Assembly: GCA_028717245.1 (NCBI GenBank)
Contig: JAQUOD010000003.1
Span: forward strand, 85,636-149,635
Origin: Candidatus Omnitrophota bacterium
GTDB lineage: Bacteria > Omnitrophota > Gorgyraeia > Gygaellales > Profunditerraquicolaceae
DNA length: 64,000 bases
Reading direction: 5' to 3'
Part shown: positions 34,446-49,123 of the stretch, one piece after another
Layout: each line of letters begins with the position of its first letter
How positions within the stretch are numbered: the stretch's first letter is position 1
The notes under the pieces: model-generated
Told to the model about the DNA's origin: nothing
Databases searched by the model: none
Seen by the model: the letters and a program-made list of their open reading frames with translations, nothing else
Program-made: the position numbers and the translations under genes

Positions 34446-34623
34446 TATTATATTTTCTTAGTCTTAATCGGTCCCCCCCCCTAAGAGCTTCGCAATCTAT
34501 CCAACCAAATAGTGCTTTTCTTTCGTTCCTTTGCGTCTCTACCTGTTTTGTGCTTAAATTTTGCCATTAAGATGGTTTTTTTTCTTTATACTCTATTTAA
34601 AGTAGTAATTTGGTATATGCGAT

Positions 34624-35640
34624 TTGTGGTATAATTATATAAAAAGCGAGGAAGACGTGGCTTTAAAGACTAAGAAGAAACTATTTGAAAAATTAAACAA
34701 TGTAGAAGAAGCGCTCTGTTTATCAAAAATATCTCAACCCGAGTTTTTTGAGGCATATTTAGAACTTGAAACAAATCTCCACAGTATTTTTAAAAAAATA
34801 GGGGAAGTTTACGAAAAAAATAAAATTAGTCATCAAAATAATCCTGAATACATTAAGCTAAAACAACATAAAAAGAATTTAATAAGTAATTTCTACAAAA
34901 AATGGGGAATATCTCCTTCATCTTTTAAAGTAGTTAATAGTAAAATAGAGATAGACGAATCTATTAAAAACATAGACGGGATTGCGGTGCATATTGATAC
35001 TCCTCTTCCTGAAATAATCGGGAAGATCGTGCCTGCTAAGGAAAAATATTTAACTTTGTTGATAGACACCTTCGAAGAAAAAGAAATAATTTTAGCCGAA
35101 GTTTCCCGGATCTATGATTGGATAAATGAGATGCGAACAGAAACGGGAGTAAAGCTTCCTAAAGACAAATGTCATGTAAAGGTATTGGTTAGGAGATACA
35201 AAGTATTTAATCTAAGAAACCAAAGACCCCCAATGAAATTCAAGGAAATTGTTTTTCATATGATAACGAAAGGATTTTATAAAGATGAAACATTAGAAAA
35301 AGCAGAAAACTTAGCAAAAAAAGATTATGCAGCGGCTTATAGGAAGATTCACGGTATTCCATATAAAGAGCATAATAAATCGCAACTTAAGAAATCAAAT
35401 TTCAAAGGTTGCGCGTCTTGTGAAGCAAGACAAAAATGTAAAGAGCCTTGTTCCCAAGCAGAGTATTATTTATCTTTAGATGAAAAGAAGCAATCAGAAC
35501 TGCTTTTTAATAGGGGCGTAACTGATATTATTCATCCCGAAGATCTTAAAGAGGCGAAACAGAAAAAAAGAGCGATGATGTCAGAAGATGAAGAAGAGTG
35601 GAGACAAGAAGAGATTGAAAGGGGTATATATAAAAAGTAG
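34624..35640 (+). CDS. Hypothetical Lys-rich protein with C-terminal Cys cluster (CASCEARQKCKEPC)
   Basis: 338-aa ORF; start could be in-frame GTG at 34657. Confidence 0.4.
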   Translation: MWYNYIKSEEDVALKTKKKLFEKLNNVEEALCLSKISQPEFFEAYLELETNLHSIFKKIGEVYEKNKISHQNNPEYIKLKQHKKNLISNFYKKWGISPSSFKVVNSKIEIDESIKNIDGIAVHIDTPLPEIIGKIVPAKEKYLTLLIDTFEEKEIILAEVSRIYDWINEMRTETGVKLPKDKCHVKVLVRRYKVFNLRNQRPPMKFKEIVFHMITKGFYKDETLEKAENLAKKDYAAAYRKIHGIPYKEHNKSQLKKSNFKGCASCEARQKCKEPCSQAEYYLSLDEKKQSELLFNRGVTDIIHPEDLKEAKQKKRAMMSEDEEEWRQEEIERGIYKK

Positions 35641-35655
35641 TGTTTAGGGAAAATT

Positions 35656-35693
35656 AAATCAGGGTAACCCGATTTTTCACTTTTACAAGGGTG
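35656..35693 (+). repeat. 38-bp direct repeat copy 1 (aaatcagggtaacccgatttttcacttttacaagggtg)
   Basis: identical to 35738-35775. Confidence 0.8.
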
Positions 35694-35723
35694 AGGGCTT
35701 AAAAACTCTCACCCTTTTTGTTT
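35688..35723 (+). terminator. Rho-independent terminator (agggtgag/ctcaccct, T-tract) overlapping repeat copy 1
   Basis: 8-bp perfect stem + tttttgttt. Confidence 0.65.
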
Positions 35724-35737
35724 ATCCAGGCTTTTAA

Positions 35738-35775
35738 AAATCAGGGTAACCCGATTTTTCACTTTTACAAGGGTG
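35738..35775 (+). repeat. 38-bp direct repeat copy 2, 20 nt upstream of SpoVG-like gene
   Basis: identical to copy 1; contains near-palindrome atcagggtaacccgat. Confidence 0.8.
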
Positions 35776-35795
35776 GAAGGACAAATTTAAAGAAG

Positions 35796-36119
35796 ATGAG
35801 CGAAATAGTGGTCTCCGAAGTTCAAATTATTCCAGTTAAACCCAGAGAGGGCCTCGTTGCTTTTGCTTCTTGTGTTATCAACGGCCATTTTTATCTTGGT
35901 GGATTAGCGATTTATACCTGTCTTTCTTCCTCAGAAGGTTTCCGAGTGACCTATCCTACCAAAGTTTTAAATAACGGCACTAAATTAGATCTAGTTTATC
36001 CAATAACACGCGAAGTTGGGTTAACAGTTCAGAAGAAAATTGTCGAAAAATACGTAAAACTCATAGAAGATTTAACGAAAGGGAATGGTAAAAATGAACA
36101 AGAGCCGAGATTTACTTAA
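35796..36119 (+). CDS. SpoVG-like nucleic-acid-binding protein
   Basis: VSEVQIIPVKPREGLVAFASCVINGHFYLGGLAIY...GFRVTYPTK...VYPITREVGLTVQKKIVEKY matches SpoVG fold pattern; ATG 35796 preferred over ORF-track 35718. Confidence 0.5.
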   Translation: MSEIVVSEVQIIPVKPREGLVAFASCVINGHFYLGGLAIYTCLSSSEGFRVTYPTKVLNNGTKLDLVYPITREVGLTVQKKIVEKYVKLIEDLTKGNGKNEQEPRFT

Positions 36120-36399
36120 ACGTTTCGCCTCTTCAAAATCAAAATATTTTGATTTGCCTGATGGCGAAGAAACCCAAGTAAAATTTCTTTATGCAGAAGA
36201 AGTCCCTAATCATTTTGATGGCGGAGAAACAGTTTGTATTCGCTATCACTTTGACGTTGATGGTAAAGAAATGCTTTGGGATAGAACTTCGAGAGAGTTA
36301 GCTAAACAAATAGCTTCGATTTCTGAAGGAGAAACAATTTTAATAAAAAGAACCGGTGAAAAAAGTAAAACTAAATATTTTATCAGGAAAGTTGAATAA
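36085..36399 (+). CDS. Hypothetical protein (104 aa)
   Basis: ORF only. Confidence 0.35.
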   Translation: MVKMNKSRDLLKRFASSKSKYFDLPDGEETQVKFLYAEEVPNHFDGGETVCIRYHFDVDGKEMLWDRTSRELAKQIASISEGETILIKRTGEKSKTKYFIRKVE

Positions 36400-36616
36400 T
36401 GACATCAACAAGGCCCCTGTCAATTTTTCATCGCTCTGACCTACTTACTCTGTCAACGATGACCTATACAAGCATGCAGGGGCTTTGTTTTAGATTTAGA
36501 TATTGCTTTAGAGATATGCTTGGTAGGAATAAAGAGTAAAGCTTAGGCCAATAGAACGTAATTAAGTTATTTATTTCTATATATAGATAATAGTCATTTA
36601 AGAGGAGGGGAAGGAT

Positions 36617-36868
36617 ATGGGATTAACCGGAGTTAACAAATTATGTGCTCAGTGTATAAATAAATGTAAGCAGTGGAGGGAAATCAAGGTAATCAGCTGT
36701 CCACTTTTTATAAGCACGCAAAGAAAAAAACCTGATCTGAATGGCAGAAATTTTCAAGGCATACCCAACAAGCACAGGGGAATGGCGGAAATGCCATTCT
36801 TTGAGGCGTTTTCTGAAGAAAGGAATAAAGATATGGCTTCTGAGTTTATGGATACCCTGCAAGCGTGA
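36617..36868 (+). CDS. Hypothetical small protein with CxxC..C zinc-ribbon-like N-terminus
   Basis: CAQCINKCKQW; GGAGGGG RBS. Confidence 0.35.
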   Translation: MGLTGVNKLCAQCINKCKQWREIKVISCPLFISTQRKKPDLNGRNFQGIPNKHRGMAEMPFFEAFSEERNKDMASEFMDTLQA

Positions 36869-36912
36869 GATATTAGTACAAACTATACTAAACTATACCA
36901 CATTGAACGGAA

Positions 36913-37299
36913 ATGGATAAAAAGACGAAACTGTCAAACAGGCAATTATTAACAGTCAGTCATATCATTACTTCTCCTACCCTTGAAGAAGCCAGAAGGA
37001 AAGCTAAGGTAAGTAAGGGAACTTTATACGCTTGGTTAAAAGAAGAAGCCTTTAAGGTTGAGTTGAAGCGTCAGAGAGATGAAGTTATTAAAGAAGCGCT
37101 CTCTCGGTTAAAGAGTGCTATATCCCAGGCTGTAGAAAAATTGGTTAAGTTACTTGATAATGAAAAGCCAGATTTGAGGCGCCTAGTTTGTAGGGATATA
37201 CTGAATTATGCTTTAAAGAGCATTGAACTAGAAGATATCGAGACAAGGATAGCCAATCTGGAAGAAAAAACAAAATTAGCACGGAAATTTCACAGATGA
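36913..37299 (+). CDS. HTH DNA-binding protein (terminase-small-subunit-like or regulator)
   Basis: TLEEARRKAKVSKGTLYAWLK helix-turn-helix. Confidence 0.45.
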   Translation: MDKKTKLSNRQLLTVSHIITSPTLEEARRKAKVSKGTLYAWLKEEAFKVELKRQRDEVIKEALSRLKSAISQAVEKLVKLLDNEKPDLRRLVCRDILNYALKSIELEDIETRIANLEEKTKLARKFHR

Positions 37300-37553
37300 G
37301 AATTGAGAAGAGATTAGAACGGCTCGAGAAAGATATAGGGGATAAATTTCAGCCAGACCCCGGAGAAATTATTATCAATGGCAAAAGGTTAGACCAAATG
37401 ACAACGGAGGAGTTGATAGCAGATGTCAATAAGAAGGTTAAGGCCATGGAGGATACAGAGTATGGAAGGAAAATAATGAAACTATCCATAGACGATAAAA
37501 TAAAACGTCTAAACCAATGGGCTATTACCGGCGTTTGTCCACCATTAGATTAG
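37296..37553 (+). CDS. Hypothetical coiled-coil protein (85 aa)
   Basis: ORF overlapping upstream stop (ATGA). Confidence 0.35.
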   Translation: MRIEKRLERLEKDIGDKFQPDPGEIIINGKRLDQMTTEELIADVNKKVKAMEDTEYGRKIMKLSIDDKIKRLNQWAITGVCPPLD

Positions 37554-37581
37554 CCAAATTTATGGGGAGAATATGAAAAAA

Positions 37582-37609
37582 GGCATTTTTTGGGCATTTT
37601 TTGGGCACA
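37582..37609 (+). promoter_or_regulatory. Triple GGCA/GGGCA/GGGCACA direct-repeat operator-like site upstream of xis
   Basis: aGGCAttttttGGGCAttttttGGGCACAaaat. Confidence 0.45.
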
Positions 37610-37688
37610 AAATTAAGGTTATCTTTTGTTATGTATTGCAAACAAAGAAGTTAGTAAAAGTTAGTGCAGAATAAGGAAATCTAACCTT

Positions 37689-37895
37689 GTGGAAAAGTTA
37701 CTTACGATAAGCCAATTAAGTGAGTTATTACAAGTTAGTCCAAAGACAATTTATCAATGGACGCACATAGGTTTTGTTCCTCACTATAAATTCCCTAAAG
37801 GTGTTCGTTTTAGGATAATAGAAATAGAAAATTGGTTAAAAAGCAGGAAAAAAAGAGGGAGAGCTTCGTATGTCTTGGTTGACAAAGGACCATAA
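37689..37895 (+). CDS. xis: AlpA/excisionase-family HTH protein (Xis)
   Basis: LLTISQLSELLQVSPKTIYQW...GVRFRIIEIENWL pattern typical of phage excisionase/AlpA. Confidence 0.7.
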   Translation: MEKLLTISQLSELLQVSPKTIYQWTHIGFVPHYKFPKGVRFRIIEIENWLKSRKKRGRASYVLVDKGP

Positions 37896-38775
37896 TTATG
37901 TTATTTTAAGGCAGCATAAGGAGATAACTTTGAAAGGTACAATTCAAGAAAAAACAAAGATTGCATACCTTGGTCCGGAAGAAACCTTTAGCCATCAGGT
38001 TGTAGATGAGCTCTTTGGAGATTCGGCAATATACCTACCTCAAGATAATTTTCCCTCAGTTATAAAACTTATATGCGACGGCAAGGCAGACAGAGGTGTT
38101 ATTCCATTCTTTAACCCCTATGAAGAACATATACGCGAATGTCAAGAAGAGCTATTCAAAACCGATTTAATAGCAACAAATGTTCATAAGATTGATATTG
38201 ATTTATACTTAGCAACTAACAGATTACGTTTGGATGAGGTAAAATCAATACGATCTAATGAGCATGTGTTTAAACAATGTGATGTTTGGTTAAGTCAACA
38301 TTTACCAGAAATACGTTTTGATGGAAGAGGTAGCACCGCGGGAGCAGCCGAGGATATAAAAAAAATACCTTATGCCGCGGCAATCTGCTCATTTAAAGCT
38401 GCCATAAAAAACGATCTGGATATTTTAGCAAAAAGCATACAAAATACAAAGAATTTCACATTATTTTTTGTTATACAAAAAGCAGATACCATAGAAGAAT
38501 GGGAAGACTATTCATTTCTTTGTTTCAAGATAAAAGATGCTAAAGAACAAAAAGCAATATTGGATATTCTTCAGAAACATCGTTTCAGAAGTTCGCAAAA
38601 GTGGGATTTTCCTCATCCGACGGGGGAATACATACTTTTCTTCTTAGAGTTTTTTGGAGCTTATCTTGATGCAAATGTTGTTTCTTTTATCGCAGAGGTT
38701 AAAAAATACTTTCCAGACTGTAAACTGATAGGGACTTTTAAGGAGAGTATTACGAGAAGAATGGTTGAAATTTAG
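37870..38775 (+). CDS. Divergent prephenate-dehydratase (PDT)-like domain protein
   Basis: IAYLGPEETFSH, SNEHVFKQC, STAGAAE, N-FTLF (cf. PDT IAYLGPEGTFS, SHPQALAQC, STAAAA, N-TRF); Arg of TRF replaced by Leu. Confidence 0.45.
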   Translation: MSWLTKDHNYVILRQHKEITLKGTIQEKTKIAYLGPEETFSHQVVDELFGDSAIYLPQDNFPSVIKLICDGKADRGVIPFFNPYEEHIRECQEELFKTDLIATNVHKIDIDLYLATNRLRLDEVKSIRSNEHVFKQCDVWLSQHLPEIRFDGRGSTAGAAEDIKKIPYAAAICSFKAAIKNDLDILAKSIQNTKNFTLFFVIQKADTIEEWEDYSFLCFKIKDAKEQKAILDILQKHRFRSSQKWDFPHPTGEYILFFLEFFGAYLDANVVSFIAEVKKYFPDCKLIGTFKESITRRMVEI

Positions 38776-38776
38776 T

Positions 38777-38806
38777 TTGACAAAGTGAGAAAAGATACTA
38801 TATAAT
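38777..38806 (+). promoter_or_regulatory. Sigma70-type promoter (TTGACA ... TATATAAT)
   Basis: TTGACA 38777-38782; tactatataat 38797-38806. Confidence 0.45.
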
Positions 38807-38831
38807 AGAGTACATCCTATCCTATCACAAT

Positions 38832-39095
38832 ATGACTAAAAACGAAGAAATGAAACCATTTCTGAACTTGACAACTGTCCAGATTAACGGTTGGGCTATG
38901 GCTTTTTGCCCTGAATTTGAGGTATCTGCTTGTGGTCCTGATCGCGATGCAGTGGTCGAGGATTTATTTGATATGGTCAAAAGGAACGCAAGCATATTCT
39001 TGCAAGAAGAGTCAACTTCTCCGGCTCTAAGAAAATGGTCGAAAGAAGTTGTTGATCATCAGGATCGTATTGCAGATTTATTCAAAACAGCTTAA
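38832..39095 (+). CDS. HicB-like (UPF0150) antitoxin-fold protein, solitary
   Basis: INGWAMAFCPEFEVSACGPDRDAVVEDLFDMVK resembles HicB N-domain; no HicA partner seen. Confidence 0.35.
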   Translation: MTKNEEMKPFLNLTTVQINGWAMAFCPEFEVSACGPDRDAVVEDLFDMVKRNASIFLQEESTSPALRKWSKEVVDHQDRIADLFKTA

Positions 39096-39187
39096 TAGTA
39101 GTAGTCATTTGTCACGGTTTTTATAAAAACAGAAGTGGTTAATTACTTCTGTTTTTTTATTTGTAATTTTATAAAATAAGATACTTC

Positions 39188-39205
39188 TGTGCCCAAAATG
39201 TGCCC
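39188..39205 (-). promoter_or_regulatory. GGGCACA-TTTT-GGGCACA operator-like site (reverse orientation) near island right end
   Basis: tgtgcccaaaatgtgccca. Confidence 0.4.
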
Positions 39206-39338
39206 ATCCAAGTGAAAAACATCGGGAAACAAAGGGTAACATCAGGCAACATCCAGACTCGCTAATCCATTGACAATAAAAGCATTGGATATTTAATACA
39301 TTAAAACACAGAGGGTTAGGGAAATAAGCACGATGGAC

Positions 39339-39352
39339 TCCCTCCCTCGGCA
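39339..39352 (+). repeat. attR core: 14-bp direct repeat TCCCTCCCTCGGCA
   Basis: exact copy of tRNA-Phe 3' end (28453-28466). Confidence 0.65.
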
Positions 39353-39674: not shown

Positions 39675-39719
39675 TTGACAAAAAATCAGAATAGTGTATA
39701 TTTAATAATGAAAACCATT
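39675..39719 (+). promoter_or_regulatory. fur promoter (TTGACA-16-TGtATATT) with overlapping Fur-box-like palindrome (taataatgaaaaccatt)
   Basis: TTGACA 39675-39680; TATATT 39697-39702; AATGaaaacCATT immediately downstream. Confidence 0.4.
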
Positions 39720-39735
39720 CCCAATAAGGAGCGAT

Positions 39736-40209
39736 ATGCTAAGAAGCGAATGTAGAGGGCAAGGGTGGTGGCACGGTAAATTCAGAGGCTGCGGCTATAG
39801 GCTTACCCTGGGCCGGGAGGCTATCCTTGATGTCTTATCGAAGGCCGAAGGCCACTTAAGCGCCGAAGATATATACTTGAAGATACATCCGAAGCATCCT
39901 AACGTAGGTTTGACTACCGTTTACCGGACATTAGATGTATTATCAGGCCTTGGTATGGTTTATAAACTTGATTTCGGAGACGGTCGTTCACGCTATGAGT
40001 TTGCCGAAGGGCCTAAGGGGGCACACCACCATCACCACTTAGTCTGTACCCAGTGCAATAAGGTGATTGACTACACCGATTTTATAGACGATGAGGTTGA
40101 ATTGCTCAATCAGACCGAAAAAGGCTTAGGGCAAAAGTATAAGTTTAAGATCACAAATCATCTGATACAGTTTTACGGTTTGTGCGAGGATTGTAGCGGT
40201 AAAAAATAG
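39736..40209 (+). CDS. fur: Fur-family metal-responsive transcriptional regulator
   Basis: winged-helix LTTVYRTLDVLSGLGMV, His-rich HHHHH..C..C and C-terminal CxxC; N-terminal start uncertain. Confidence 0.8.
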   Translation: MLRSECRGQGWWHGKFRGCGYRLTLGREAILDVLSKAEGHLSAEDIYLKIHPKHPNVGLTTVYRTLDVLSGLGMVYKLDFGDGRSRYEFAEGPKGAHHHHHLVCTQCNKVIDYTDFIDDEVELLNQTEKGLGQKYKFKITNHLIQFYGLCEDCSGKK

Positions 40210-40272
40210 CCGCTATATTTTTTTACTTCTAAATGAAAATCATTTTCATTAAGTGTAAGGAGGGTAAAGGTT

Positions 40273-40788
40273 ATGCCAAGATTTGACGGTACTGGCCCTT
40301 TAGGTAAAGGGCCGTTTACCGGAAGAGGGATGGGGTATTGTGTGATTAAATTAGATTCTAAAAACGATGATCTTCAAAAAAATGAAGGGAAGGAGGTACT
40401 TAATATGCCAAGAGGAGACGGAACAGGGCCGATGGGATTAGGTCCCATGACCGGAAGAGCGGCAGGTTTCTGCGCTGGATATTCGGTGCCCGGCTATATG
40501 AATTCGATTCCCGGCAGGGGTTATTTTGGCAGAGGAAGAGGATTTTATGGTCGTGGCGGCGGAAGAGGGTGGCGCAATTTGTATTATGCCACGGGTATTC
40601 CTGGCTGGCAAAGAGCCTCAATGGGGATGCCTGCTTTTGGCGGAGCGTATCCTTATGCTCCGGAAATGACTTCGAAGCAGGAAGCGGATATCTTAAAGAA
40701 TGAAGCAGATTTTTTAAAAAAACAGCTTGAAGATGTCCAGGCCCGTATCGAGGCGTTAGAAAAAGTTCAGGCAGAAAAGAATGAATAG
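40273..40788 (+). CDS. DUF5320-like protein with duplicated MPRxDGTGPxGxGPxTGR motif and C-terminal coiled coil
   Basis: MPRFDGTGPLGKGPFTGRGMGYC and MPRGDGTGPMGLGPMTGRAAGFCAGY internal repeats. Confidence 0.55.
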   Translation: MPRFDGTGPLGKGPFTGRGMGYCVIKLDSKNDDLQKNEGKEVLNMPRGDGTGPMGLGPMTGRAAGFCAGYSVPGYMNSIPGRGYFGRGRGFYGRGGGRGWRNLYYATGIPGWQRASMGMPAFGGAYPYAPEMTSKQEADILKNEADFLKKQLEDVQARIEALEKVQAEKNE

Positions 40789-40858
40789 CTGCTATGGGGT
40801 GAGGGGATGAAAATAAGCTTTATCCCTTCACTCTGATTATTTTTTAAAAGGAGGAATT

Positions 40859-41275
40859 ATGCGCGTAGCTATATCTACAGATGGAGAGTTTGTATCTGCC
40901 CATTTTGGCAGGTGCCCTTCCTTTACTCTTATCGATATTGAAAATGGCAAGATAACCAAAAGGACGGAAGTGGCAAATCCCGGGCATCAGCCGGGGGCTA
41001 TCCCGCAGTTTCTGCATCAAAAAGGCGTAAATTGTATTGTTGCCGGAGGTATGGGAGCGCGGGCAACCTCATTTTTTGAGGAATATAGCATCAAGACGAT
41101 TGTAGGGATAAGTGGAAAGATAGATGATGTGGTGGAACAGCTTAAGAAGGGTACTTTGGAAGGCGGAGAAAGCCTTTGCAAGCCCGGTGTGGGAAAAGGG
41201 TATGGTTTAGATAAGTCGATATGCGACCATCCGCACGAAGATAATTGTGATCATTCGGGAGGTGAGAATATATGA
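40859..41275 (+). CDS. NifX/NifB-type (dinitrogenase FeMo-cofactor-binding fold) protein
   Basis: MRVAISTDGEFVSAHFGRCPSFTLIDIENG ... CIVAGGMGARA pattern. Confidence 0.7.
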   Translation: MRVAISTDGEFVSAHFGRCPSFTLIDIENGKITKRTEVANPGHQPGAIPQFLHQKGVNCIVAGGMGARATSFFEEYSIKTIVGISGKIDDVVEQLKKGTLEGGESLCKPGVGKGYGLDKSICDHPHEDNCDHSGGENI

Positions 41276-41649
41276 AAATATGCATTACTTCAGAAAGCGG
41301 CAGTTTAGATTCTAAGGTAGATCCGCGATTCGGTAGGTGTCAATATTTCATTATTGCTGATACCGATACTTTAGAATTTGAGGTTATTGTAAATCCGAAT
41401 ACCGAATCTATGGGAGGAGCGGGGATTCAATCGGCGCAGTTAGTTAGTTCAAAACAGGTAAAGGCCGTGATTACGGGAAATGTAGGTCCTAATGCCTTTC
41501 AGACTTTACAGGCTGCTGGCATAGAAATTTTTACCGGCGCATCAGGTACGGTAAAAGAAGTAATTGAGAAATATAAAAAGGGAGAATTTAAGGCAGTTTC
41601 CGGCCCCAGTGTTGGTTCACATGCCGGAATGCCGGGAAAGAAAAAATAA
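41272..41649 (+). CDS. NifX/NifB-type cofactor-binding fold protein (paralog)
   Basis: MKICITSESGSLDSKVDPRFGRCQYFIIAD ... AVITGNVGPNA. Confidence 0.7.
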   Translation: MKICITSESGSLDSKVDPRFGRCQYFIIADTDTLEFEVIVNPNTESMGGAGIQSAQLVSSKQVKAVITGNVGPNAFQTLQAAGIEIFTGASGTVKEVIEKYKKGEFKAVSGPSVGSHAGMPGKKK

Positions 41650-41753
41650 TAGCACTCAATCCTATTATGCATCCTGCCGTATTGAATCGGCAGGTGCGCC
41701 CGCCGCCTTTGCGGCGATAGATTGGCGTAAAGTAACTGGTTAAGGAGCAGCTT

Positions 41754-41921
41754 ATGGCAGCGAAGGTAGACAAAAAGAAATGTAACGGTTGCGGCACATG
41801 CAAAGATATTTGCCCTGTAAACGCTATAAAGATAGAAAAAGAAAAGGCGGTTATCAGCGATGATTGCGTGGAATGCGGCGCGTGCGTAAATCAGTGCCCG
41901 AATGAGGCAATCTCAATTTAG
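41754..41921 (+). CDS. Small 2x[4Fe-4S] ferredoxin (55 aa; below ORF-track cutoff)
   Basis: [12 protein letters not shown] and [12 protein letters not shown]; AAGGAG RBS. Confidence 0.7.
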
Positions 41922-41929
41922 GAGGTTTG

Positions 41930-43108
41930 ATGGATAGGCATAAGTATTTTTTTAGCTCCGAATCAGTTGGAGAGGGGCATCCGGATAAGTTATGCGATCA
42001 GATATCAGATGGGGTATTAGATGAAGTCTTAAAACTTGACCCTAATAATGAAAAAAGCAGAGTTGCCTGCGAGACTTACGTTACAATGGGGCTTCTGGTT
42101 ATTGGAGGGGAGATTATGACTTCCGCCTATGTTAATATCCAGAAACTTGCCCGTGAGATTATTCGAGAAATAGGTTATACCCACCCGAAATATGGTTTTG
42201 ATCACGAGACCTGTGCTATTGTAAATACCATTAATAGCCAATCTCCTGATATCGCGCAAGGAGTGAATATCGGAGGGGCGGGAGACCAGGGGATTATGTT
42301 TGGTTATGCTTGTAATGAGACCAAGGAGTATATGCCGCTACCGATAACACTGGCGCATAAATTGGTTAAACGCATGGCCGATGTGCGCAGAGCCGGTATT
42401 TTAAAATATCTTGGCCCGGATTGCAAATCGCAGGTAACGGTAGAATATCACGATGGCAAGCCTAAGCGGATAGACGCAGTTGTGCTTGCTTGTCAGCATA
42501 CCGATACTATCTTGGACAAAACAGGAAAAAATATAACTTCAAAGGCGCGTCAAGAGCTTATTGACGTTATCGCTAAGCCTATTTTAGAAGGTTTGGTAGA
42601 TAGGAATACAAAATATTATGTTAATCAAACGGGAAAATTCTTAATCGGCGGGCCGCAATCCGATACCGGGATGACCGGCAGAAAAATAATTGTGGATACT
42701 TATGGCGGAACCGTCGCCCATGGCGGCGGGGCATTCTCAGGAAAAGACCCTACAAAGGTCGATCGTTCCGCAGCCTATATGTGCCGTTATATCGCTAAGA
42801 ATATGGTTACCGCAGGGCTTGCTGAGAAATTTCTTGTTCAGTTGGCTTATGTTATCGGTTATTCAGAGCCGCTTTCTGTCTATGTAGAAACCTATGGCAC
42901 AGGGAAATTACCTAATGAGCAACTGGTTAAGCTTATTCGCGAAAATTTTAAGCTTACGCCAAGGGGTATAATTGATTCACTAAAATTACTCAGGCCGGTT
43001 TATAGGAAAACTGCCTGTTACGGGCATTTTGGCCGTGATGACGCAGGTTTTAACTGGGAATTGACGGATAAGGCAGAGGCGTTAAAAAAACAGGCTTCGA
43101 GATTATAA
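41930..43108 (+). CDS. metK: S-adenosylmethionine synthetase
   Basis: [21 protein letters not shown]-terminal signature, [19 protein letters not shown]. Confidence 0.9.
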
Positions 43109-43129
43109 ACAAAAGAGGAGGTGATTTGT

Positions 43130-43381
43130 ATGCCATTTTTTGAGCCGTTAGAAAAGTTGGATCCTAAGCATGTTGATTTAGAAAGAGCAAGAAAATCCCT
43201 GAGGGAAGAGCTTGAAGCAGTAGATTTTTATCAGGAGCGGGTTGACGCAACCGATGATGAGTCATTGAAAAAGCTTCTTGCGCATAATATGAATGAGGAA
43301 AAAGAGCACGCGGCAATGCTTATGGAATGGATTAGAAAGAATGATTCAACGCAAGACAAGATGTTTAAAGAGCATGATTAG
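43130..43381 (+). CDS. Encapsulated-ferritin-like (EncFtn-like) protein
   Basis: EELEAVDFYQERVDATDDESLKKLLAHNMNEEKEHAAMLMEWIRKND matches EncFtn ExxH di-iron motif; GGAGG RBS. Confidence 0.65.
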   Translation: MPFFEPLEKLDPKHVDLERARKSLREELEAVDFYQERVDATDDESLKKLLAHNMNEEKEHAAMLMEWIRKNDSTQDKMFKEHD

Positions 43382-43393
43382 GAGGTGATTAGT

Positions 43394-43645
43394 ATGCCAA
43401 GAGGCGATGGAACTGGCCCTTTAGGTCAAGGCCCAGGTATGGGAAGGGGCATAGGAAGAGGCCGTGGTAGAATGCCTGCCCGTCCGGCAGGCGGGAGCGG
43501 CGGCCGTTTAGGAGCAGGGCCAGGAGGGAATTGCGTCTGCCCAAGCTGCGGGACTAAAGTTGTGCATCAGGCAGGCACACCCTGTTCTTCGATGAATTGC
43601 CCTAAATGCGGGATAAGAATGGTGCGGGAAGGATGGATTGGATAA
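43394..43645 (+). CDS. DUF5320-like MPRGDGTGP-motif protein with C-terminal zinc ribbon
   Basis: MPRGDGTGPLGQGPGMGRG..., CPSCG...CPKCG. Confidence 0.55.
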   Translation: MPRGDGTGPLGQGPGMGRGIGRGRGRMPARPAGGSGGRLGAGPGGNCVCPSCGTKVVHQAGTPCSSMNCPKCGIRMVREGWIG

Positions 43646-44249
43646 AGAAGTTTTAGAAAACCACAAAAAATATCTCGAGCGAAAAACCCTATATAAAAGT
43701 TTTGGCTGCGATGTTGACCAGGAAAGGGCCTTTATTATCGAGAAGGCCCAGCCTCTTTATGGCGATATATTGGAAGCCGGAACCGGTAAGGGCCATTTTG
43801 CGCTCGCTTTGGCTAAAGAAGGCTACCGATTTACTACCTTTGATATTTCCAAAGAAGAGCAGAAATTCGCGCGGCTAAATCTAAAATATTTTGGGCTTGA
43901 CCAGTTGGTAGATTTTCGTATTGAGAATGGCGAATCCTTAAGTTTTAAAGATAAGAGTTTCGACATAATTTTTTCAATAAACACCTTCCACCACTTGGTA
44001 AATCCCTATAAAGTCCTTGATGAGCTAATCCGCCTACTTTCCTTTGAGGGAAAGCTTATTTTAAGCGATTTTACCAAGGAAGGAATGGCATTAATGGATA
44101 AAATCCATGCCAGCGAAGGGAGAAAACACGAAGTCAGTAAAACCACTCTGGCTGATATAGAGCCATATTTAATAAAGAAGGGTTTTAAAATTAATAAGGC
44201 AAGCAGTAAATTTCAGGGAGTTTTAATAACGTACCATCAATTAATATGA
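43638..44249 (+). CDS. Class I SAM-dependent methyltransferase
   Basis: ILEAGTGKGHFALALA motif I. Confidence 0.7.
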   Translation: MDKEVLENHKKYLERKTLYKSFGCDVDQERAFIIEKAQPLYGDILEAGTGKGHFALALAKEGYRFTTFDISKEEQKFARLNLKYFGLDQLVDFRIENGESLSFKDKSFDIIFSINTFHHLVNPYKVLDELIRLLSFEGKLILSDFTKEGMALMDKIHASEGRKHEVSKTTLADIEPYLIKKGFKINKASSKFQGVLITYHQLI

Positions 44250-45100
44250 TTATTTCAGTTGCCAGCGGAAAAGGCGGGACAGGAAAAACAACAGTTGCGG
44301 TAAATTTGGCTTTATCCATAGATAATGTGCAGTTTATTGATTGTGATGTTGAAGAACCCAATGCGCACATTTTTTTAAAACCAGCCATTAAGGAGCAAAA
44401 GAAAGCTTACATACCTGTTCCAGAAATCGATGAATCGAGATGTAATTATTGTGGTAAATGCGCCACGGTTTGTGTTTATCATGCCATAGCGGTTTTACCT
44501 TCCTCGGATAGTAAAAAAGGAAATACTTTAATTTTTCCACATCTTTGCCACGGCTGTGGCGCTTGCAGCGCATTATGCCCGGAAAAGGCGATAAAAGAAG
44601 TAAATAGAGAGATTGGTGTCGTGGAGTTAGGCAATTGCGGGAAGATAGATTTTGTTCACGGAAAGCTCAATATCGGCGAAGCGATGTCTCCGCCACTTAT
44701 CCGGCAGGTTAAAGAAGAGATAAATCTTGATAAAACCGTTATCATTGACGCTCCTCCGGGTACTTCCTGTCCGGTAGTTGCTTCGGTTAAGGACAGTGAT
44801 TTTTGCGTGTTAGTTACCGAGCCTACGCCGTTTGGTTTAAATGATTTGATTTTAGCTGTAGAAGTTCTAAGGAAATTAAAGATTCCTTTCGGTGTAGTTA
44901 TCAATCGCTCGGATTTAGGAAATAATAAAACCGAAGAGTATTGCCAAAAGGAAAATATTCCGGTATTGATGAGAATACCCTTTAGAAAAGAAATAGCCAT
45001 GGCCTATTCAAAGGGAGAACCCATGGTTAAGGCATTCCCGGAATCTAAAAAAGATTTTCAGAGCTTTTTTAATAAAATCAAACATGGAAAATCTAATTAA
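44246..45100 (+). CDS. MinD/ParA-family P-loop ATPase with inserted 2x[4Fe-4S] ferredoxin domain
   Basis: ASGKGGTGKTT Walker A; CNYCGKCATVC and CHGCGACSALCP. Confidence 0.8.
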   Translation: MIISVASGKGGTGKTTVAVNLALSIDNVQFIDCDVEEPNAHIFLKPAIKEQKKAYIPVPEIDESRCNYCGKCATVCVYHAIAVLPSSDSKKGNTLIFPHLCHGCGACSALCPEKAIKEVNREIGVVELGNCGKIDFVHGKLNIGEAMSPPLIRQVKEEINLDKTVIIDAPPGTSCPVVASVKDSDFCVLVTEPTPFGLNDLILAVEVLRKLKIPFGVVINRSDLGNNKTEEYCQKENIPVLMRIPFRKEIAMAYSKGEPMVKAFPESKKDFQSFFNKIKHGKSN

Positions 45101-45473
45101 AGATTTCTTACAGCAAAAACGGTTCGCTGTAATAGGCTCTTTTAGGAATAAAGAAAAATTTGCTTATAGGATTTTAGCTAACTTGATTGAAAAAGGCTAT
45201 GAGGTTTTTCCCGTTAATCCTCGCTTAAAGGAGATAGAAGGCAGGACCTGCTATAAGACTATAAGCGATATTCCATATAGCGTGGATGCCGCTAATATAG
45301 TTACGCCTCCTTTAGTGACGAAAAACATTTTAAAAGAATGCCTGCAAAAAGGCATAAAAAAAGCATGGCTTCAGCCGGGCGCGGAAAGCCAAGATGCTAT
45401 ACAATTTTGTCATGATAACGATATAAAAGTGATCCACAGCATGTGTATAATGCTGGAATTGTTGAGAAAATAG
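45084..45473 (+). CDS. CoA-binding domain protein
   Basis: FAVIGSFRNKEKFAYRI...GYEVFPVNP pattern. Confidence 0.65.
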   Translation: MENLIKDFLQQKRFAVIGSFRNKEKFAYRILANLIEKGYEVFPVNPRLKEIEGRTCYKTISDIPYSVDAANIVTPPLVTKNILKECLQKGIKKAWLQPGAESQDAIQFCHDNDIKVIHSMCIMLELLRK

Positions 45474-45480
45474 GAGAATC

Positions 45481-46831
45481 TATGAACAAAAAAGCAGATA
45501 TTCTTATTATCGGCGCGGGCCCTGCGGGAGTTGTATGCGCCATAACTGCAAGAAAATACTATCCCGACAAAAGTATCCTGGTGATGAAAGATATCGCAAA
45601 TGGAGTTATCCCCTGCGGAATTCCCTATATGTTCGTTAGCCTCGATAACCCCGAAGAAAATAAGCTAGGGATGGTATCACTTGAAAAAAATAATGTTGAG
45701 GTTGTTGTTGATTCCGCCGTAAGCATAAACCGTAAAGATAAGACTATAGAAACAAGAAATAAAGATACGTATTCCTATGAAAAATTAGTTTTAGCGATAG
45801 GCTCAACTCCGATAATTTTACCTATCAAGGGAGTGGATAAAAAAGGGGTATATCCTATAAATAAAGAAATGGGCTATTTAAAAGGCGTGATAAACCAGAT
45901 TAAGCAGTGCAAAAATGTGTTAGTTATAGGAGGAGGATTTATCGGCGTCGAGTTTGCCGACGAGCTTTCTAAAATCAAAGGGATTAACGTTGTCTTAATA
46001 GAAATGCTTCCGCAAATACTCGCTAACTCTTTTGATCCGGAATTTTCGCAAGTTGCTGAGGCGCGTTTGCGGGAAAAAGGAGTGATTGTTTTGACCAATA
46101 CTAAGGTTGAGGAAATAATCGGACAGGATAAAGTCGAAAAGGTGAAGCTTGGTGACGGAAGAGAGCTTCCGATCGAAGGCGTAATTCTTGGGGTAGGTTC
46201 AAAGCCGAACGTCAAAATAGCCGTAGACTCCGGATTAGAGATCGGATCCTGTAAAGGTATTATGACCGATGAGTACATGCGTTCGTCAGCGGACCCGGAT
46301 ATTTTCGCCATCGGAGACTGTGCCTGTAAGCGTGATTTCTATACCCGTAAAGCAATTCCTGTAATGCTAGCTTCTACCGCGACGGCCGAAGCCAGGATTG
46401 CGGGTGCTAATCTTTACCAGATTAAGGTAATCCGCGAAAATAAGGGGACTATTGCGGTGTATTCGACGTACATCGATGGATTAGTTTTAGGTTCGGCCGG
46501 GCTTACCGAGAAAACCGCCCGAGAAGAAGGTTTTGAAATTGTCGTCGGAAGTATCGACGGCGTGGATAAACATCCCGCTTCTTTGCCGGGTGCCTGTAAG
46601 GGCAAGATAAAACTGATTTTCTCCAAGCAATCGGGGATCATTTTGGGAGGGCAGGTAAGCTGCGGTATGTCCTGCGCGCAGATGATAAATATCATAGGTG
46701 TTGCGATTCAGAAGCGCATGTCGGCCACGGAATTGGAGACTTTGCAAGTAGCGACGCATCCTTATTTGACTAGCGCCCCGACAATGTTCCCCATAGTGTT
46801 AGCAGCTCAGGACGTGTATGGGAAAATATAA
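45481..46831 (+). CDS. Pyridine nucleotide-disulfide oxidoreductase of the CoA-disulfide reductase / NADH oxidase family
   Basis: ILIIGAGPAG FAD motif; single redox Cys in VIPCGIPY; AGGAG RBS before ATG 45481. Confidence 0.7.
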
Positions 46832-46846: not shown

Positions 46847-47698
46847 ATGAAGCAGATAGTTGTGATAAGCGGGAAAGGTGGCACGGGTAAAACAGTAATT
46901 ACGGGAGCGTTTGCCGCTTTAACGAAAAATAAAGTTATGGCTGACTGCGATGTTGACGCGGCAGATTTACATTTATTATTGCAGCCAAAAATCAAAGAAC
47001 GCCATGACTTTAGAAGCGGTTTAAGCGCGTCAATTGATAAAAAAATCTGCCAGCAATGCGGCAAGTGCATCGCAGCCTGTAGATTTAACGCCATAAGCGA
47101 CAGCTTTGTAGTTGATCATGTGCCTTGTGAGGGGTGCGGTTTTTGCAGCCATATTTGCCCGGTGGGCGCCATAAAGATGGAGGAAAACCTTGCCGGAGAG
47201 TGGTTTATTTCCGAGACGCGCTTTGGCCCTATGGTGCACGCTAAGCTTGGGATAGCTGAAGAGAATTCAGGCAAGCTTGTGTCTCTAGTGAAAAAGCAGG
47301 CAAAAGACCTGGCAGAGAAGGCAAATTTCGATTGGGTAATTATTGACGGCGCTCCTGGTATAGGCTGTCCGGTAATTGCTTCGCTTTCTGGCGTAGATTG
47401 CGCAGTAGTAGTAACTGAACCTACGCTATCCGGTCTTCATGATGCGTTAAGAGTTATAGAAGTAACGAACCACTTTAACGTTCCGTCTAAGATGGTAATT
47501 AATAAATATGATTTAAATATGGAAATGTCAAATAAAATTGAGGAATATTGCGCAAAGAACAGGATTCCATTGATCGGCAAGGTCGGGTTTGATAAAGCAG
47601 TAGTAGAAGCTATGGTAGAGGGTAAGACGATTATGGAATATAAAGACACTCCTGTTAAAGATGAGATTATTAGGATTTGGGAGAAGCTGCAAGTTTAA
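46847..47698 (+). CDS. MinD/ParA-family P-loop ATPase with 2x[4Fe-4S] ferredoxin domain (paralog)
   Basis: SGKGGTGKTV; CQQCGKCIAAC and CEGCGFCSHICP. Confidence 0.8.
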   Translation: MKQIVVISGKGGTGKTVITGAFAALTKNKVMADCDVDAADLHLLLQPKIKERHDFRSGLSASIDKKICQQCGKCIAACRFNAISDSFVVDHVPCEGCGFCSHICPVGAIKMEENLAGEWFISETRFGPMVHAKLGIAEENSGKLVSLVKKQAKDLAEKANFDWVIIDGAPGIGCPVIASLSGVDCAVVVTEPTLSGLHDALRVIEVTNHFNVPSKMVINKYDLNMEMSNKIEEYCAKNRIPLIGKVGFDKAVVEAMVEGKTIMEYKDTPVKDEIIRIWEKLQV

Positions 47699-47710: not shown

Positions 47711-48700
47711 ATGGATAAGCGGGATATACACGTATTAAAATATTTTTCATCTTTTGTGAGCGTGTCTTACGGAAAGGTTATCAATATTACCGAGCCGACA
47801 CTTACTTTTTGCCCATTGGCAAAGCATTTATACAGGGATTTTAGTGGTATTTCGGGTAATAACAAGAAAGCTCTTAAAAATGCCATAAAAAAAGCGATTG
47901 AGTCAAAAATAAGAGACTACGGTTTTTTCACGTATAAACGAAAGATTTCATCTGATGGTGTTGCAATACCGTATGGCGCCTCAGAGATGATCAGTTTTGC
48001 GTTAAGAAAAAAGGCCGTTGACGCGGCGGTTGTAGTGTGTGAAGGGGCAGGAACAGTGGTTACGAATAAGCCGGAAGTCGTCCAGGGTATTGGCGCCCGA
48101 ATGAATAGTCTATTGTTAACCTCGCCCATTAAAGAGATTATCCATAATCTTAAAAATTCCGGCTGTCGGGTAGTATTTGAAAACGCGCTTATTAATCAGG
48201 TACGGGGAGTTGAGGATGCGATAAAAGCCGGGTATAAGACTATTGCTGTTACTGTATGCGGCCATTCAGCCGAGGACTTAAAAGTATTCCGTTCATTAGA
48301 AAAAGAAGACAGCGTTAAAATAATTTCTTTAGCGGTATGTACGACCGGTATATCTAAAAACAAAATCAATATGATACGTGACTACGCTGATCTGGTGTGG
48401 AGCTGCGCTTCTTTTGATATACGTCGTATGATCGGGCATTTGGCCGTATTACAGCTATCCCGGCAAATACCTGTTTTTGTTTTAACGAAAAAAGGCATAG
48501 ATTTTGTTTCAATGTATTCCCGGGAAGAAGAAATTATAAAGAATTTGGATATCCATAAGCAATACCTTTTTTCAAATGAGCTGAACGGGCAATGTGTTCA
48601 TATGGGGGATTCCAAGGTATTTATCAACGAGTCTAAATTACCGGTTAGCTCCCGGAAGGAGCCCGTACTTGAAAATAAAAGCGAATACGCGGCCATATAG
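47711..48700 (+). CDS. Hypothetical protein (329 aa)
   Basis: ORF; not assignable by eye. Confidence 0.4.
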   Translation: MDKRDIHVLKYFSSFVSVSYGKVINITEPTLTFCPLAKHLYRDFSGISGNNKKALKNAIKKAIESKIRDYGFFTYKRKISSDGVAIPYGASEMISFALRKKAVDAAVVVCEGAGTVVTNKPEVVQGIGARMNSLLLTSPIKEIIHNLKNSGCRVVFENALINQVRGVEDAIKAGYKTIAVTVCGHSAEDLKVFRSLEKEDSVKIISLAVCTTGISKNKINMIRDYADLVWSCASFDIRRMIGHLAVLQLSRQIPVFVLTKKGIDFVSMYSREEEIIKNLDIHKQYLFSNELNGQCVHMGDSKVFINESKLPVSSRKEPVLENKSEYAAI

Positions 48701-48727
48701 AAATATTACATTCGGGAGGGAATTTAT

Positions 48728-49123
48728 ATGAAGAATTCAAGTAGCAAAGAGGGAACCCTCGGCTATCCTACGGAAGTAATAAGTCTTTTAAATAGCCCTA
48801 AGTTTTTTGGCAGGATGAATGACCCCACAGCTTCTTCATATTTAAAAGGGCCTTGCGGAGATTCTATGGAATTCTACCTGGTGATAGAAGATAAAAGGAT
48901 TACCGATATCAGATATTACGCAGATGGATGTGGAGCTACCAGGGCATGCGCTGCAATGGTTGCGTATTTGGCTTACGGCAAGACTGTCAATGAGGCTTTA
49001 AATATCTCGGCGGGAGAGGTGATTAAACGATTAAAGGGGCTACCGGAAGACCACTTGCATTGTTCGATACTTTCTGTAAGCACGCTTTACCGGGCGATAG
49101 CGGATTATTTATTAAAGGCATGA
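48728..49123 (+). CDS. NifU N-terminal / IscU-like Fe-S scaffold domain protein
   Basis: GPCGDSM...GCGATRAC...HCS three-Cys scaffold pattern. Confidence 0.65.
   Translation: MKNSSSKEGTLGYPTEVISLLNSPKFFGRMNDPTASSYLKGPCGDSMEFYLVIEDKRITDIRYYADGCGATRACAAMVAYLAYGKTVNEALNISAGEVIKRLKGLPEDHLHCSILSVSTLYRAIADYLLKA

Follow-up and report, generated by a model that had tools for sequence, protein, structure and literature searches.

An orp-type gene cluster headed by a Fur-family regulator, with DUF5320, Cys-rich ribbon and short EncFtn-like proteins, in a Candidatus Omnitrophota bacterium

An orp-type core, probably under a Fur-family regulator

The 64-kb stretch of DNA from a Candidatus Omnitrophota bacterium analysed here (the window) carries an array of genes, all on the + strand, which is headed by the Fur-family regulator gene fur and encodes a DUF5320 protein, two NifX-like (Di-Nase) proteins, a ferredoxin, a short EncFtn-like (encapsulated-ferritin-like) protein, a Cys-rich ribbon protein, two MinD/ParA ATPases and an Mrp-type carrier. 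A sequence-only reading of positions 39675 to 43645 had suggested that the first part of this array may be an unstudied iron or iron-sulfur (Fe-S) precursor handling set under Fur control. Every gene and feature that it listed is found on the + strand among the open reading frames (ORFs) and Pfam matches, and an iron/Fe-S handling set is supported by homology and synteny. The description of the core as unstudied does not hold: homology places it with the orp cluster of Desulfovibrio, which encodes the Orange-protein (ORP) complex, and makes it an orp-type cluster. The control elements and the genes of principal interest are as follows.

39675-39702, + strand: sigma-70-type fur promoter, TTGACA-16-TATATT (11 of 12 matches, the best in the region)
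39709-39723, no strand: Fur box 1, TGAAAACCATTCCCA, imperfect, directly 3' of the fur -10 element (19.2 bits)
39736-40209, + strand: Fur-family regulator gene fur (PF01475, 3.6e-32)
40192-40217, + strand: terminator-like hairpin with T-run at the end of fur (hairpin scan)
40232-40250, no strand: Fur box 2, a perfect 19-bp palindrome, AATGAAAATCATTTTCATT, 22 bp 5' of the DUF5320 start codon
40273-40788, + strand: DUF5320 protein, 171 amino acids (aa) (PF17253, 1.8e-39; 135 bits against a cutoff of 27)
40795-40835, + strand: stem-loop and T-run that follow the DUF5320 gene (17 pairs by the scan, 16 by the fold)
40859-41275, + strand: NifX-like (Di-Nase) protein 1 (PF02579, 1.2e-21; NF041136 positions 265-364, 1.4e-27, 97 bits)
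41272-41649, + strand: NifX-like (Di-Nase) protein 2, ORP/MTH1175 type, Orp8-like (PF02579, 1.5e-27)
41754-41921, + strand: 55-aa 2x[4Fe-4S] ferredoxin (Pfam)
43130-43381, + strand: short EncFtn-like protein, 83 aa (PF22277, 4.4e-32; likely start ATG 43130)
43394-43645, + strand: protein with motif, poly(Gly/Arg) segment and Cys-rich ribbon (likely start ATG 43394, 83-86 aa)
44246-45100, + strand: MinD/ParA ATPase with 2x[4Fe-4S] ferredoxin insert, copy 1 (ParA, CbiA, Fer4)
46847-47698, + strand: MinD/ParA ATPase with ferredoxin insert, copy 2 (ParA/CbiA and Fer4)
49794-50621, + strand: Mrp/NBP35 Fe-S carrier ATPase (NF041136, 356 bits against a cutoff of 450, positions 2-250 of 365)

The closest solved relatives of NifX-like protein 2 are the ORP of D. 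gigas (2WFB, 1e-20, residues 2-113) and MTH1175 (1EO1, 2.4e-20). NifX-like protein 1 is of the type of the MrpORP C-terminal domain, with AHFGRC near its start and two CDH motifs in its tail; motifs of this kind have been described for MrpORP's Di-Nase domain (PMC6345978). The MrpORP model is split in the window over two genes that lie 8.5 kb apart, the P-loop part at 49794-50621 and the Di-Nase part at 40859-41275.

In D. vulgaris Hildenborough the ORP system comprises Orp3, Orp4, Orp5, Orp8, Orp9/MrpORP and OrpR. MrpORP passes Fe-S clusters to Orp3, Orp4 and Orp8 and is polar, and cell division has been proposed as the complex's physiological role (PMC6345978, PMC8359166, PMC3897727). The operons are driven by sigma54 and OrpR, an Fe-S-cluster redox sensor (PMC8359166). 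Both systems have paired MinD-like ATPases with 2x[4Fe-4S] inserts, the likeness of the window ATPases to Orp3 and Orp4 being one of architecture according to the published description (PMC6345978); both have single-domain Di-Nase proteins and an Mrp/NBP35 carrier, and both are clustered and restricted to anaerobes. The window differs in having a Fur-family repressor and Fur boxes where the ORP system is controlled by sigma54, OrpR and IHF, and a single co-directional array, with no sigma54 activator in it, where the ORP system has two divergent operons. It has a P-loop protein and a stand-alone Di-Nase protein instead of a two-domain MrpORP, and its DUF5320, ribbon and EncFtn-like proteins are not among the five named proteins of the ORP complex.

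Relatives of the DUF5320 protein were sought in one genome per GTDB species and were found in at least 545 species genomes. A sample of 80 DUF5320 loci, all ORFs of which were clustered, covers Omnitrophota, Planctomycetota, Verrucomicrobiota, Actinomycetota, Bacillota, Chloroflexota, Thermodesulfobacteriota, Atribacterota, NC10, archaea and others; 37 of the loci extend for at least 5 kb on each side of DUF5320 and are treated as complete. The cluster is syntenic in more than 20 phyla, with the recurrent order Fur-DUF5320-NifX-NifX-(Fdx)-(ribbon)-ATPase-ATPase, and in the complete loci DUF5320 is accompanied by a NifX-like gene (35 loci), a MinD-ferredoxin ATPase (25), the ribbon protein (23) and Mrp (18). 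The ferredoxin has tblastn matches (E<=1e-5) in 45/80 loci, a count that may include other ferredoxin domains.

Fur box 1 follows the fur promoter directly, and Fur box 2, the palindrome of which is unique in the window, falls between the hairpin that closes fur and the DUF5320 ribosome-binding site. The Fur-box-like palindrome reported earlier at the fur promoter corresponds to the box at 39709-39723; the perfect palindrome at 40232-40250 had not been mentioned. Searching the window for the E. coli Fur consensus yielded nothing better than scattered sites with five mismatches, which was uninformative; a matrix derived from the orthologous promoters of 19 related loci was used instead. With this matrix, Fur box 2 reaches 23.3 bits and Fur box 1 19.2 bits, followed by the next site of the window at 11.2 bits. 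Since shuffled single windows reach up to 21.7 bits, the case for the boxes rests on footprinting across phyla. The TTGACA...TATAAT layout stands 5' of fur in 19 related loci as well, and a 7-1-7 box with the consensus TGAAAATCATTTTCA is found in 19 loci, from many phyla, at two conserved positions: one just past the -10 element of fur, and a second in the fur-DUF5320 spacer wherever that spacer measures at least 60 bp. A weak box 5' of feoA (57315-57329, 9.3 bits) scores under the shuffle background and is not claimed.

The regulator has the FUR domain (PF01475), and its subfamily alignment shows a His-rich site with an HHHHH run, two CxxC pairs (CTQC and CEDC) and a conserved N-terminal extension, WWHGxFRGCGYR. 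Among the NCBIfam models the Bacillus-type Fur model fits best (136 bits, cutoff 220), with the PerR models at 88 bits or less. In E. coli, the suf operon is an example of Fe-S machinery repressed by Fur. The window shares with such classical Fur regulons (B. subtilis Fur; E. coli suf) the His-rich site, the two CxxC pairs, palindromic TGAnAAT-N-ATTnTCA boxes over promoters, predicted autoregulation and Fe-S machinery as a target. It differs in that its regulator forms a distinct subfamily marked by the N-terminal extension, reaches the equivalog cutoff of no NCBIfam Fur or PerR model, and is genetically tied to one cluster in many phyla.

A Fur-type gene is present in 21/80 loci, at a median of 53 bp 5' of DUF5320. 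Of the other regulators that head the cluster, an OrpR-like sigma54 activator is found in 18 loci and DUF134 in 17. The Fur and sigma54/OrpR types never occur in the same locus (21 versus 18 loci) and therefore look like alternative controllers of one module. With boxes at both promoters in 19 loci of many phyla, the cluster is very probably under the control of a Fur-family repressor, as had been proposed, and Fur box 1 is the predicted site of autoregulation.

The DUF5320, ribbon and EncFtn-like proteins

When all six frames of the 64 kb are scanned, the MPRxDGTGPxGxGP motif is found three times and no more. By profile and alignment, the proteins that begin with MPRGDGTGP fall into the DUF5320 family and a small Cys-rich ribbon family, each of which occurs in such clusters across more than 20 phyla. 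The motif is not known to resemble the Family 1 targeting peptides of encapsulins in sequence.

The DUF5320 protein consists of two N-terminal motif copies (MPRFDGTGPLGKGPFTGRGMGYC and MPRGDGTGPMGLGPMTGRAAGFC), a Gly/Arg/aromatic segment and a C-terminal helix. The NCBI annotation has the 127-aa form only (P0024, 100% identity over 127 aa), which starts at the second motif; the first motif copy of the 171-aa form is conserved at the protein level in relatives. The closest database proteins carry Omnitrophota/Omnitrophica labels. An internal Shine-Dalgarno sequence, AAGGAGGT (translated K-E-V), precedes ATG 40405 within 40384-40407. A perfect Shine-Dalgarno sequence is present 6-8 nt 5' of the in-frame ATG of the second motif in 15/15 two-motif DUF5320 genes (the window, L001, L004, L015, L024, L036, L040, L044, L047, L048, L059, L061, L065, L070 and L072), as against 8% for other internal Met codons. 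The internal Shine-Dalgarno sequence and in-frame ATG indicate that the two-motif gene probably gives both a long (171-aa) and a canonical short (127-aa) product. The 70-nt spacer between DUF5320 and the first NifX-like gene, which contains the stem-loop, folds at -23.8 kcal/mol, and a stable hairpin follows DUF5320 in 18/33 related loci too. This suggests that the hairpin acts as an attenuator or mRNA stabiliser and that DUF5320 may be expressed above the downstream genes.

The DUF5320 family has about 5,900 representatives (5,882) at 50% identity, most of them 115-135 aa long and starting at the motif, which stands at the extreme N-terminus in nearly all of the best 150 of the 5,882. The motif ends in an invariant Cys and is followed by the Gly/Arg/aromatic-rich segment and then the helix. 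AlphaFold2 predicts residues 1-106 to be disordered and a confident helix at 134-169 (mean predicted local distance difference test score, pLDDT, 49). In 24/93 family members a Gly/Arg/aromatic tail takes the place of the helix, those from Planctomycetota with (GRGF)n repeats. Three loci contain fusions: DUF5320 with a 2x[4Fe-4S] ferredoxin (L033), a NifX domain with a Gly/Arg tail and coiled coil (L076), and a weakly matching NifX-like domain with the ribbon (L067). Searches of the searchable literature with DUF5320, PF17253 and the motif string returned nothing relevant, and the DUF5320 profile gave only chance coiled-coil and zinc-finger matches in Protein Data Bank (PDB) sequence searches, with no solved relative. 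Long representatives (200-288 aa), considered as possible domain fusions, proved to be tandem forms or over-extended ORFs with no extra Pfam domain. A weak Phage_scaffold match (E 0.0095) covers the coiled-coil helix only and was dismissed.

The ribbon family counts 51 members in 48/80 loci, about 40 of them with an MPRGDGTGP-type N-terminal motif, and the start of the window protein was placed at ATG 43394 because the family begins at that motif. Its ribbon module, CxCPxCG-x4-H-x5-PC-x4-CPxCG, is conserved in the family and in some loci fused to DUF134, and its Gly/Arg-rich segment has no aromatic residues. Against the DUF5320 model the protein scores 21 bits, below the cutoff, over the N-terminal half of the model. 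A PDB sequence search gave chance coiled-coil and zinc-finger matches only, with no solved relative.

The start of the EncFtn-like protein was placed at ATG 43130 because close relatives, which are numerous and 75-93% identical, are almost all 83 aa long. Its best solved relative is 3K6C (2e-23, residues 6-85), with 5DA5 at 8e-20, and it belongs to the EncFtn fold family, with the ferroxidase-centre Glu, ExxH and Tyr residues of both kept (EELEAVD.Y and EEKEHAAM). The match to TIGR04535 (97.6 bits, cutoff 125) covers positions 1-80 of 114. The protein ends in KMFKEHD, about 34 residues short of the end of that model, where the targeting peptide would fall, and it lacks the C-terminal targeting peptide of EncFtn cargo, as the sequence-only reading had noted. 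By length, residues and fold it is a member of the s-FLP class without targeting peptide. That reading had added that EncFtn normally needs a shell, which is too strong here, as this class, with NE0167 (PDB 3K6C) as type example, is already recognised (PMC11202242). The window protein shares with NE0167 of Nitrosomonas europaea the length class, the ferroxidase residues and the absence of a C-terminal targeting peptide. It differs in belonging to an 83-aa subfamily that is embedded in orp/DUF5320 clusters, a context of s-FLPs for which we found no report in the searchable literature.

Six close relatives were sampled with flanks of 6-7 kb. Four are in Fur-headed clusters with DUF5320 and NifX-like genes. 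The cluster of the fifth is headed by DUF134 and contains MinD-ferredoxin ATPases, Mrp and a NifX-like gene, but Pfam recognises no DUF5320 in it; the sixth lies next to a DUF134-ribbon gene and a TrmO-like gene only. Two more GTDB loci have the EncFtn-like gene at the identical position, in the order NifX2-EncFtn-ribbon. Separately, in L081 and L082, both from candidate division WOR-3, a Fur-DUF5320-NifX-ferredoxin-EncFtn cluster looks decayed, with a NifX-like ORF of 57 aa and Mrp/ParA split into 117 and 158 aa, possibly as a result of pseudogenes or assembly errors.

No encapsulin (PF04454 or other HK97-fold protein) was found among the window ORFs of at least 240 aa that were scanned with Pfam; two ORFs of the island described below (29631-30425 and 34624-35640) have no Pfam match at all. 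Nor was an encapsulin gene seen within 6-7 kb of the six EncFtn-like relatives, or an encapsulin-like family among the 40 most recurrent neighbour clusters of the DUF5320 loci. The absence of an encapsulin nearby, noted at the outset, is borne out, and, as the N-terminal position of the motif also indicates, the motif proteins represent no known type of encapsulin cargo peptide.

The rest of the array and its surroundings

The segment read originally stops at 43645, inside the cluster, whose downstream genes for the ATPases, Mrp, the radical SAM protein, the ARMT1-like (DUF89) protein, MBL and TrmO recur with it in other phyla. The cluster reaches about 50.6 kb, and probably 57.3 kb. Its remaining genes are listed below (SAM, S-adenosylmethionine).

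41927-43108, + strand: S-adenosylmethionine synthetase MetK (Pfam)
43638-44249, + strand: class I SAM-dependent methyltransferase (Pfam)
45084-46831, + strand: CoA-binding protein and pyridine nucleotide-disulfide oxidoreductase, between the two ATPases (Pfam)
47711-49776, + strand: methanogenesis-marker-8 (DUF2099) homologue, NifU_N scaffold-like protein and DUF5981 protein (TIGR03275, PF01592, PF12225)
50618-52675, + strand: radical SAM protein, PanD and ARMT1-like (DUF89) protein (Pfam)
53104-57317, + strand: FmdB-like zinc ribbon, MBL-fold, HypA, thioredoxin-like, DnaJ-domain, second methyltransferase and TrmO-like proteins (Pfam; the thioredoxin-like call is based on similarity to a recurrent locus cluster)

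MetK, which had been counted as a member of the cluster, is found in 1/80 related loci and is an incidental passenger. The methyltransferase at 43638-44249 has tblastn matches in 8/80 loci, a related class I methyltransferase cluster is present in 21/80, and a similar enzyme occupies the same position in L001 and L088. The pyridine nucleotide-disulfide oxidoreductase recurs in 9/80 loci and in L088. Further downstream, Mrp recurs in 32 of the 80 loci, DUF89 in 25 and the radical SAM protein in 20; for MBL, FmdB-like and TrmO genes the numbers of loci are 28, 26 and 11. Two class I SAM methyltransferases (43638-44249 and 56218-56838), MetK and a radical SAM enzyme share the array with proteins very rich in Arg-Gly repeats; either the arginines of these proteins or a small molecule might be the substrate of the methyltransferases.

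The DUF2099 homologue (47711-48700) scores 235 bits with TIGR03275, just over the cutoff of 232.7. This bacterial homologue lies between the second MinD-ferredoxin ATPase and the NifU-like gene, as it does in L088 and L003, a placement in a bacterial array that one would not expect from its name as a marker of methanogens.

A metal-homeostasis block at 57493-61592 adjoins the array and consists of feoA, feoB, a rubrerythrin-VIT1 fusion (iron exporter type), one further gene and NikR, followed by an OprB-type porin gene. On the other side, an integrated island of about 10.9 kb (28395-39352; G+C 0.35-0.38) ends about 300 bp 5' of the fur promoter. A tRNA-Phe gene (28395-28466) bounds the island, and the 3' end of that gene (28450-28466) recurs at 39336-39352. 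The island encodes a tyrosine integrase (28588-29613), a peptidase/HEPN-AbiU2-like protein (31637-33199), a MauJ-like protein and prephenate dehydratase. An intergenic repeat, GGCACATTTTGGGCACA, occurs in it three times (30617-30650, 33204-33237 and 37593-37626), with a fourth copy, found by eye, inverted at about 39188-39210; in addition, a 38-nt sequence is directly repeated without mismatch at 35656 and 35738 and, in diverged form, at 36681.

At 5273-15404 the window encodes a membrane-bound respiratory complex of Mbh/Mbs-like type, with a Complex1_49kDa/NiFe-hydrogenase-like large subunit, NADHdh and two Proton_antipo_M proteins. According to a passage in PMC8219758, the P. furiosus sulfane reductase of Mbh/Mbs type is co-induced with IssA, a protein that is compared with the cluster below.

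Proposed metal-sulfide handling and competing explanations

From the computed homology, synteny, conserved boxes, predicted disorder, composition match and fusions we infer, with about even confidence, that the region is an orp-type operon for metal-sulfide (Fe-S) handling, repressed by a Fur-family protein and working as follows. The Fe(II)-bound regulator would occlude both promoters, and a drop in iron would derepress the operon, comparable to Fur-repressed suf. The Mrp and NifU-like proteins would load [4Fe-4S] clusters onto the ATPases, as MrpORP does in Desulfovibrio, and the Di-Nase proteins would hold anionic inorganic metal-sulfide species non-covalently, comparable to ORP and IssA. 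DUF5320 and the ribbon protein would both be largely disordered. The Gly/Arg/aromatic segment of DUF5320 may do in trans what the IssA tail is proposed to do in cis, wrapping the anionic species by electrostatic and aromatic contacts; the corresponding segment of the ribbon protein would make electrostatic contacts only, because it has no aromatic residues. We hypothesize that DUF5320 and the ribbon protein dock by their shared N-terminal peptide, MPRGDGTGPxGxGPxTGRG, onto one and the same partner, with the Di-Nase proteins as the likeliest candidate, and that the C-terminal helix of DUF5320 oligomerises this protein. The EncFtn-like protein, as a shell-less decamer, might be a local ferroxidase or O2/H2O2 scavenger that supplies Fe(III) or guards labile intermediates. 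Since Fur repression predicts expression under iron scarcity, bulk storage is a poorer fit than assembly or trafficking.

The thioferrate-binding tail of P. furiosus IssA has 70 residues, with 21% Gly, 10% cationic and 20% aromatic residues and a pI of 10.7 (PMC5524996). For the disordered segment of DUF5320 the medians over 93 family members are 69 aa, 28% Gly, 10% Arg+Lys, 21% aromatic and a pI of 10.6. Both are cationic, aromatic, Gly-rich and disordered over about 70 residues, near-identical in composition and pI, and both systems include the IPR003731/Di-Nase family: MTH1175, the IssA-type protein that was used to model IssA, matches NifX-like protein 2 at 2.4e-20. They differ in that IssA carries its tail in cis on the Di-Nase protein, whereas the window has the segment on a separate DUF5320 protein together with motif and coiled coil. 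The tails of the window NifX-like proteins are short or acidic/His/Cys and none resembles that of IssA, although some relatives do carry such tails; many neighbouring NifX-like proteins in related loci have basic Gly-rich tails (23/28 in one subfamily). IssA is archaeal and binds thioferrate, while the window organism is bacterial and mesophilic and thioferrate in it would be conjecture. Finally, IssA belongs to conditions of sulfur and iron abundance, whereas regulation by iron scarcity is predicted in the window.

Several points weigh against metal-sulfide handling by such a mechanism. What links DUF5320 to the IssA tail is a likeness in composition, taken from published figures, and not a shown homology. 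IssA is induced by abundant iron and sulfide, the opposite of classical Fur derepression. The ligands of Di-Nase proteins differ elsewhere, with Mo/Cu sulfide in ORP, thioferrate in IssA and a [3Fe-4S]-like cluster in MrpORP's Di-Nase domain, and DUF5320 is absent from the five named Desulfovibrio ORP proteins (Orp3, Orp4, Orp5, Orp8 and Orp9). The metal specificity of the regulator may be other than that of Fur, as it falls below the equivalog cutoffs of Fur and PerR models alike. The EncFtn-like gene is present in 3/81 DUF5320 loci and thus appears to be an accessory, specialised on the orp-type cluster. The role that has been proposed for the ORP complex in print is in cell division, with MrpORP at the cell pole (PMC6345978).

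A more specific proposal is that DUF5320 and the ribbon protein are equivalents in trans of the IssA tail and, together with the tail-less Di-Nase proteins, the shell-less EncFtn-type ferroxidase as a source of Fe(III) and the two ATPases, build and perhaps position a thioferrate-like cytoplasmic store or condensate of iron sulfide with a protein coat. We put this forward tentatively and consider it rather unlikely.

The strongest alternative, itself rather unlikely, is a positioning or cell-division system, with the MinD/ParA ATPases as its engine and DUF5320 and the ribbon protein as partners of the ParB/MinE/McdB kind. The Arg-containing N-terminal peptide would stimulate the ATPase, the disordered segment and coiled coil would bind or condense cargo, and the system would place cargo or the septum. 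The ATPases do belong to the MinD/ParA family, and septum positioning has been proposed for the ORP complex, in which MrpORP is polar and Orp3 and Orp4 have MinD-like amphipathic C-termini (PMC6345978). The motif is strictly N-terminal and common to two otherwise different families, as expected of a docking peptide, and a disordered region with a coiled coil is reminiscent of McdB-type adaptors. However, DUF5320 is tied more closely to the NifX-like genes (35/37) than to the ATPases (25/37), the known fusions join NifX-like and ferredoxin domains and not ATPases, and an iron-type repressor is unexpected for a division system; stimulation of the ATPase by the motif peptide is conjecture.

Less probable still is a redox-stress module, in which the Fur-family protein would be PerR-like or a redox sensor, parallel to OrpR, and the EncFtn-like and ribbon proteins would form a split rubrerythrin-like peroxidase or ferroxidase that guards O2-labile Fe-S proteins together with the oxidoreductase and thioredoxin. 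OrpR responds to redox potential by means of an Fe-S cluster (PMC8359166). The window regulator has PerR matches too (88 bits), and the EncFtn-like protein weakly matches rubrerythrin; its gene adjoins that of the ribbon protein with its two CPxCG knuckles in the window and several relatives, and an oxidoreductase gene and a thioredoxin-like gene are present in the array. Yet the Fur model is the best match to the regulator (136 bits against 88 for PerR), and the box half-site begins with TGA, as in B. subtilis Fur boxes, and not with TTA (PerR) or TCG (Zur), the distinction reportedly drawn by Fuangthong and Helmann in 2003. The ribbon protein, in 48/80 loci, is far more widely spread than the EncFtn-like protein, and so cannot exist mainly to serve it, and the core genes encode Fe-S carriers, not detoxification enzymes.

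That the Gly/Arg-rich proteins bind nucleic acids, as regulators of the cluster or RNA-binding proteins, and not metal sulfides, is in our view quite improbable. Binding of RNA or DNA is common for zinc ribbons and RGG-type segments, and a DUF134 helix-turn-helix protein occurs in 17/80 loci, sometimes fused to the ribbon; but DUF5320 has no recognisable nucleic-acid-binding fold, the fusions are to a ferredoxin (L033) and, for a similar tail and coiled-coil module, to a NifX-like domain (L076), and most loci already have a dedicated regulator (Fur, sigma54 activator or DUF134). The hairpin after DUF5320 may suit higher expression, of a structural type. Encapsulin cargo with a distant shell gene, the MPRGDGTGP peptides being loading signals, is barely credible: the ferritin-like protein is of the right family and a review holds encapsulation of s-FLPs to be sterically not excludable (PMC11202242), but the TIGR04535 match stops at position 80 of 114 with no targeting peptide, no encapsulin is encoded in the scanned window ORFs or in the sampled flanks (6-7 kb) of six relatives, Family 1 signals are C-terminal and the motif N-terminal (PMC11202242), and DUF5320, found in at least 545 species genomes, has no encapsulin-like family among its 40 top neighbour clusters.

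The ORP system itself is already known and largely homologous, and the window differs from it in its regulator, its operon layout, the division of MrpORP over two genes, its two motif families and its s-FLP. New here are the probable Fur-type control of orp-like clusters as an alternative, the IssA-like composition of DUF5320 together with the Rosetta-stone fusions, the s-FLP subfamily resident in orp-type clusters, and the internal Shine-Dalgarno sequence in every tandem DUF5320 gene.

Since its description in 2011 the ORP complex has been poorly understood, and storage of the IssA type has been demonstrated in one archaeon only. The locus joins components of the ORP system, an iron-type regulator, IssA-like tail chemistry on a separate family and a short EncFtn class that had no known partner, so that hypotheses are gained for four poorly understood families at once; Thermoanaerobacterium sp. 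(L013), Caldicoprobacter algeriensis (L009) and Thermovorax subterraneus (L016) are cultivable carriers of DUF5320 clusters, and in these three loci no Fur gene of the present type was seen next to DUF5320. If the tentative proposal of a thioferrate-like store is correct, many phyla of anaerobic bacteria would possess a shell-free Fe-S storage body, and the orphan class of non-encapsulated EncFtn proteins would gain a physiological partner. If the idea of a tail acting in trans holds, storage or buffering of iron sulfide would be general in anaerobic bacteria and not an archaeal curiosity.

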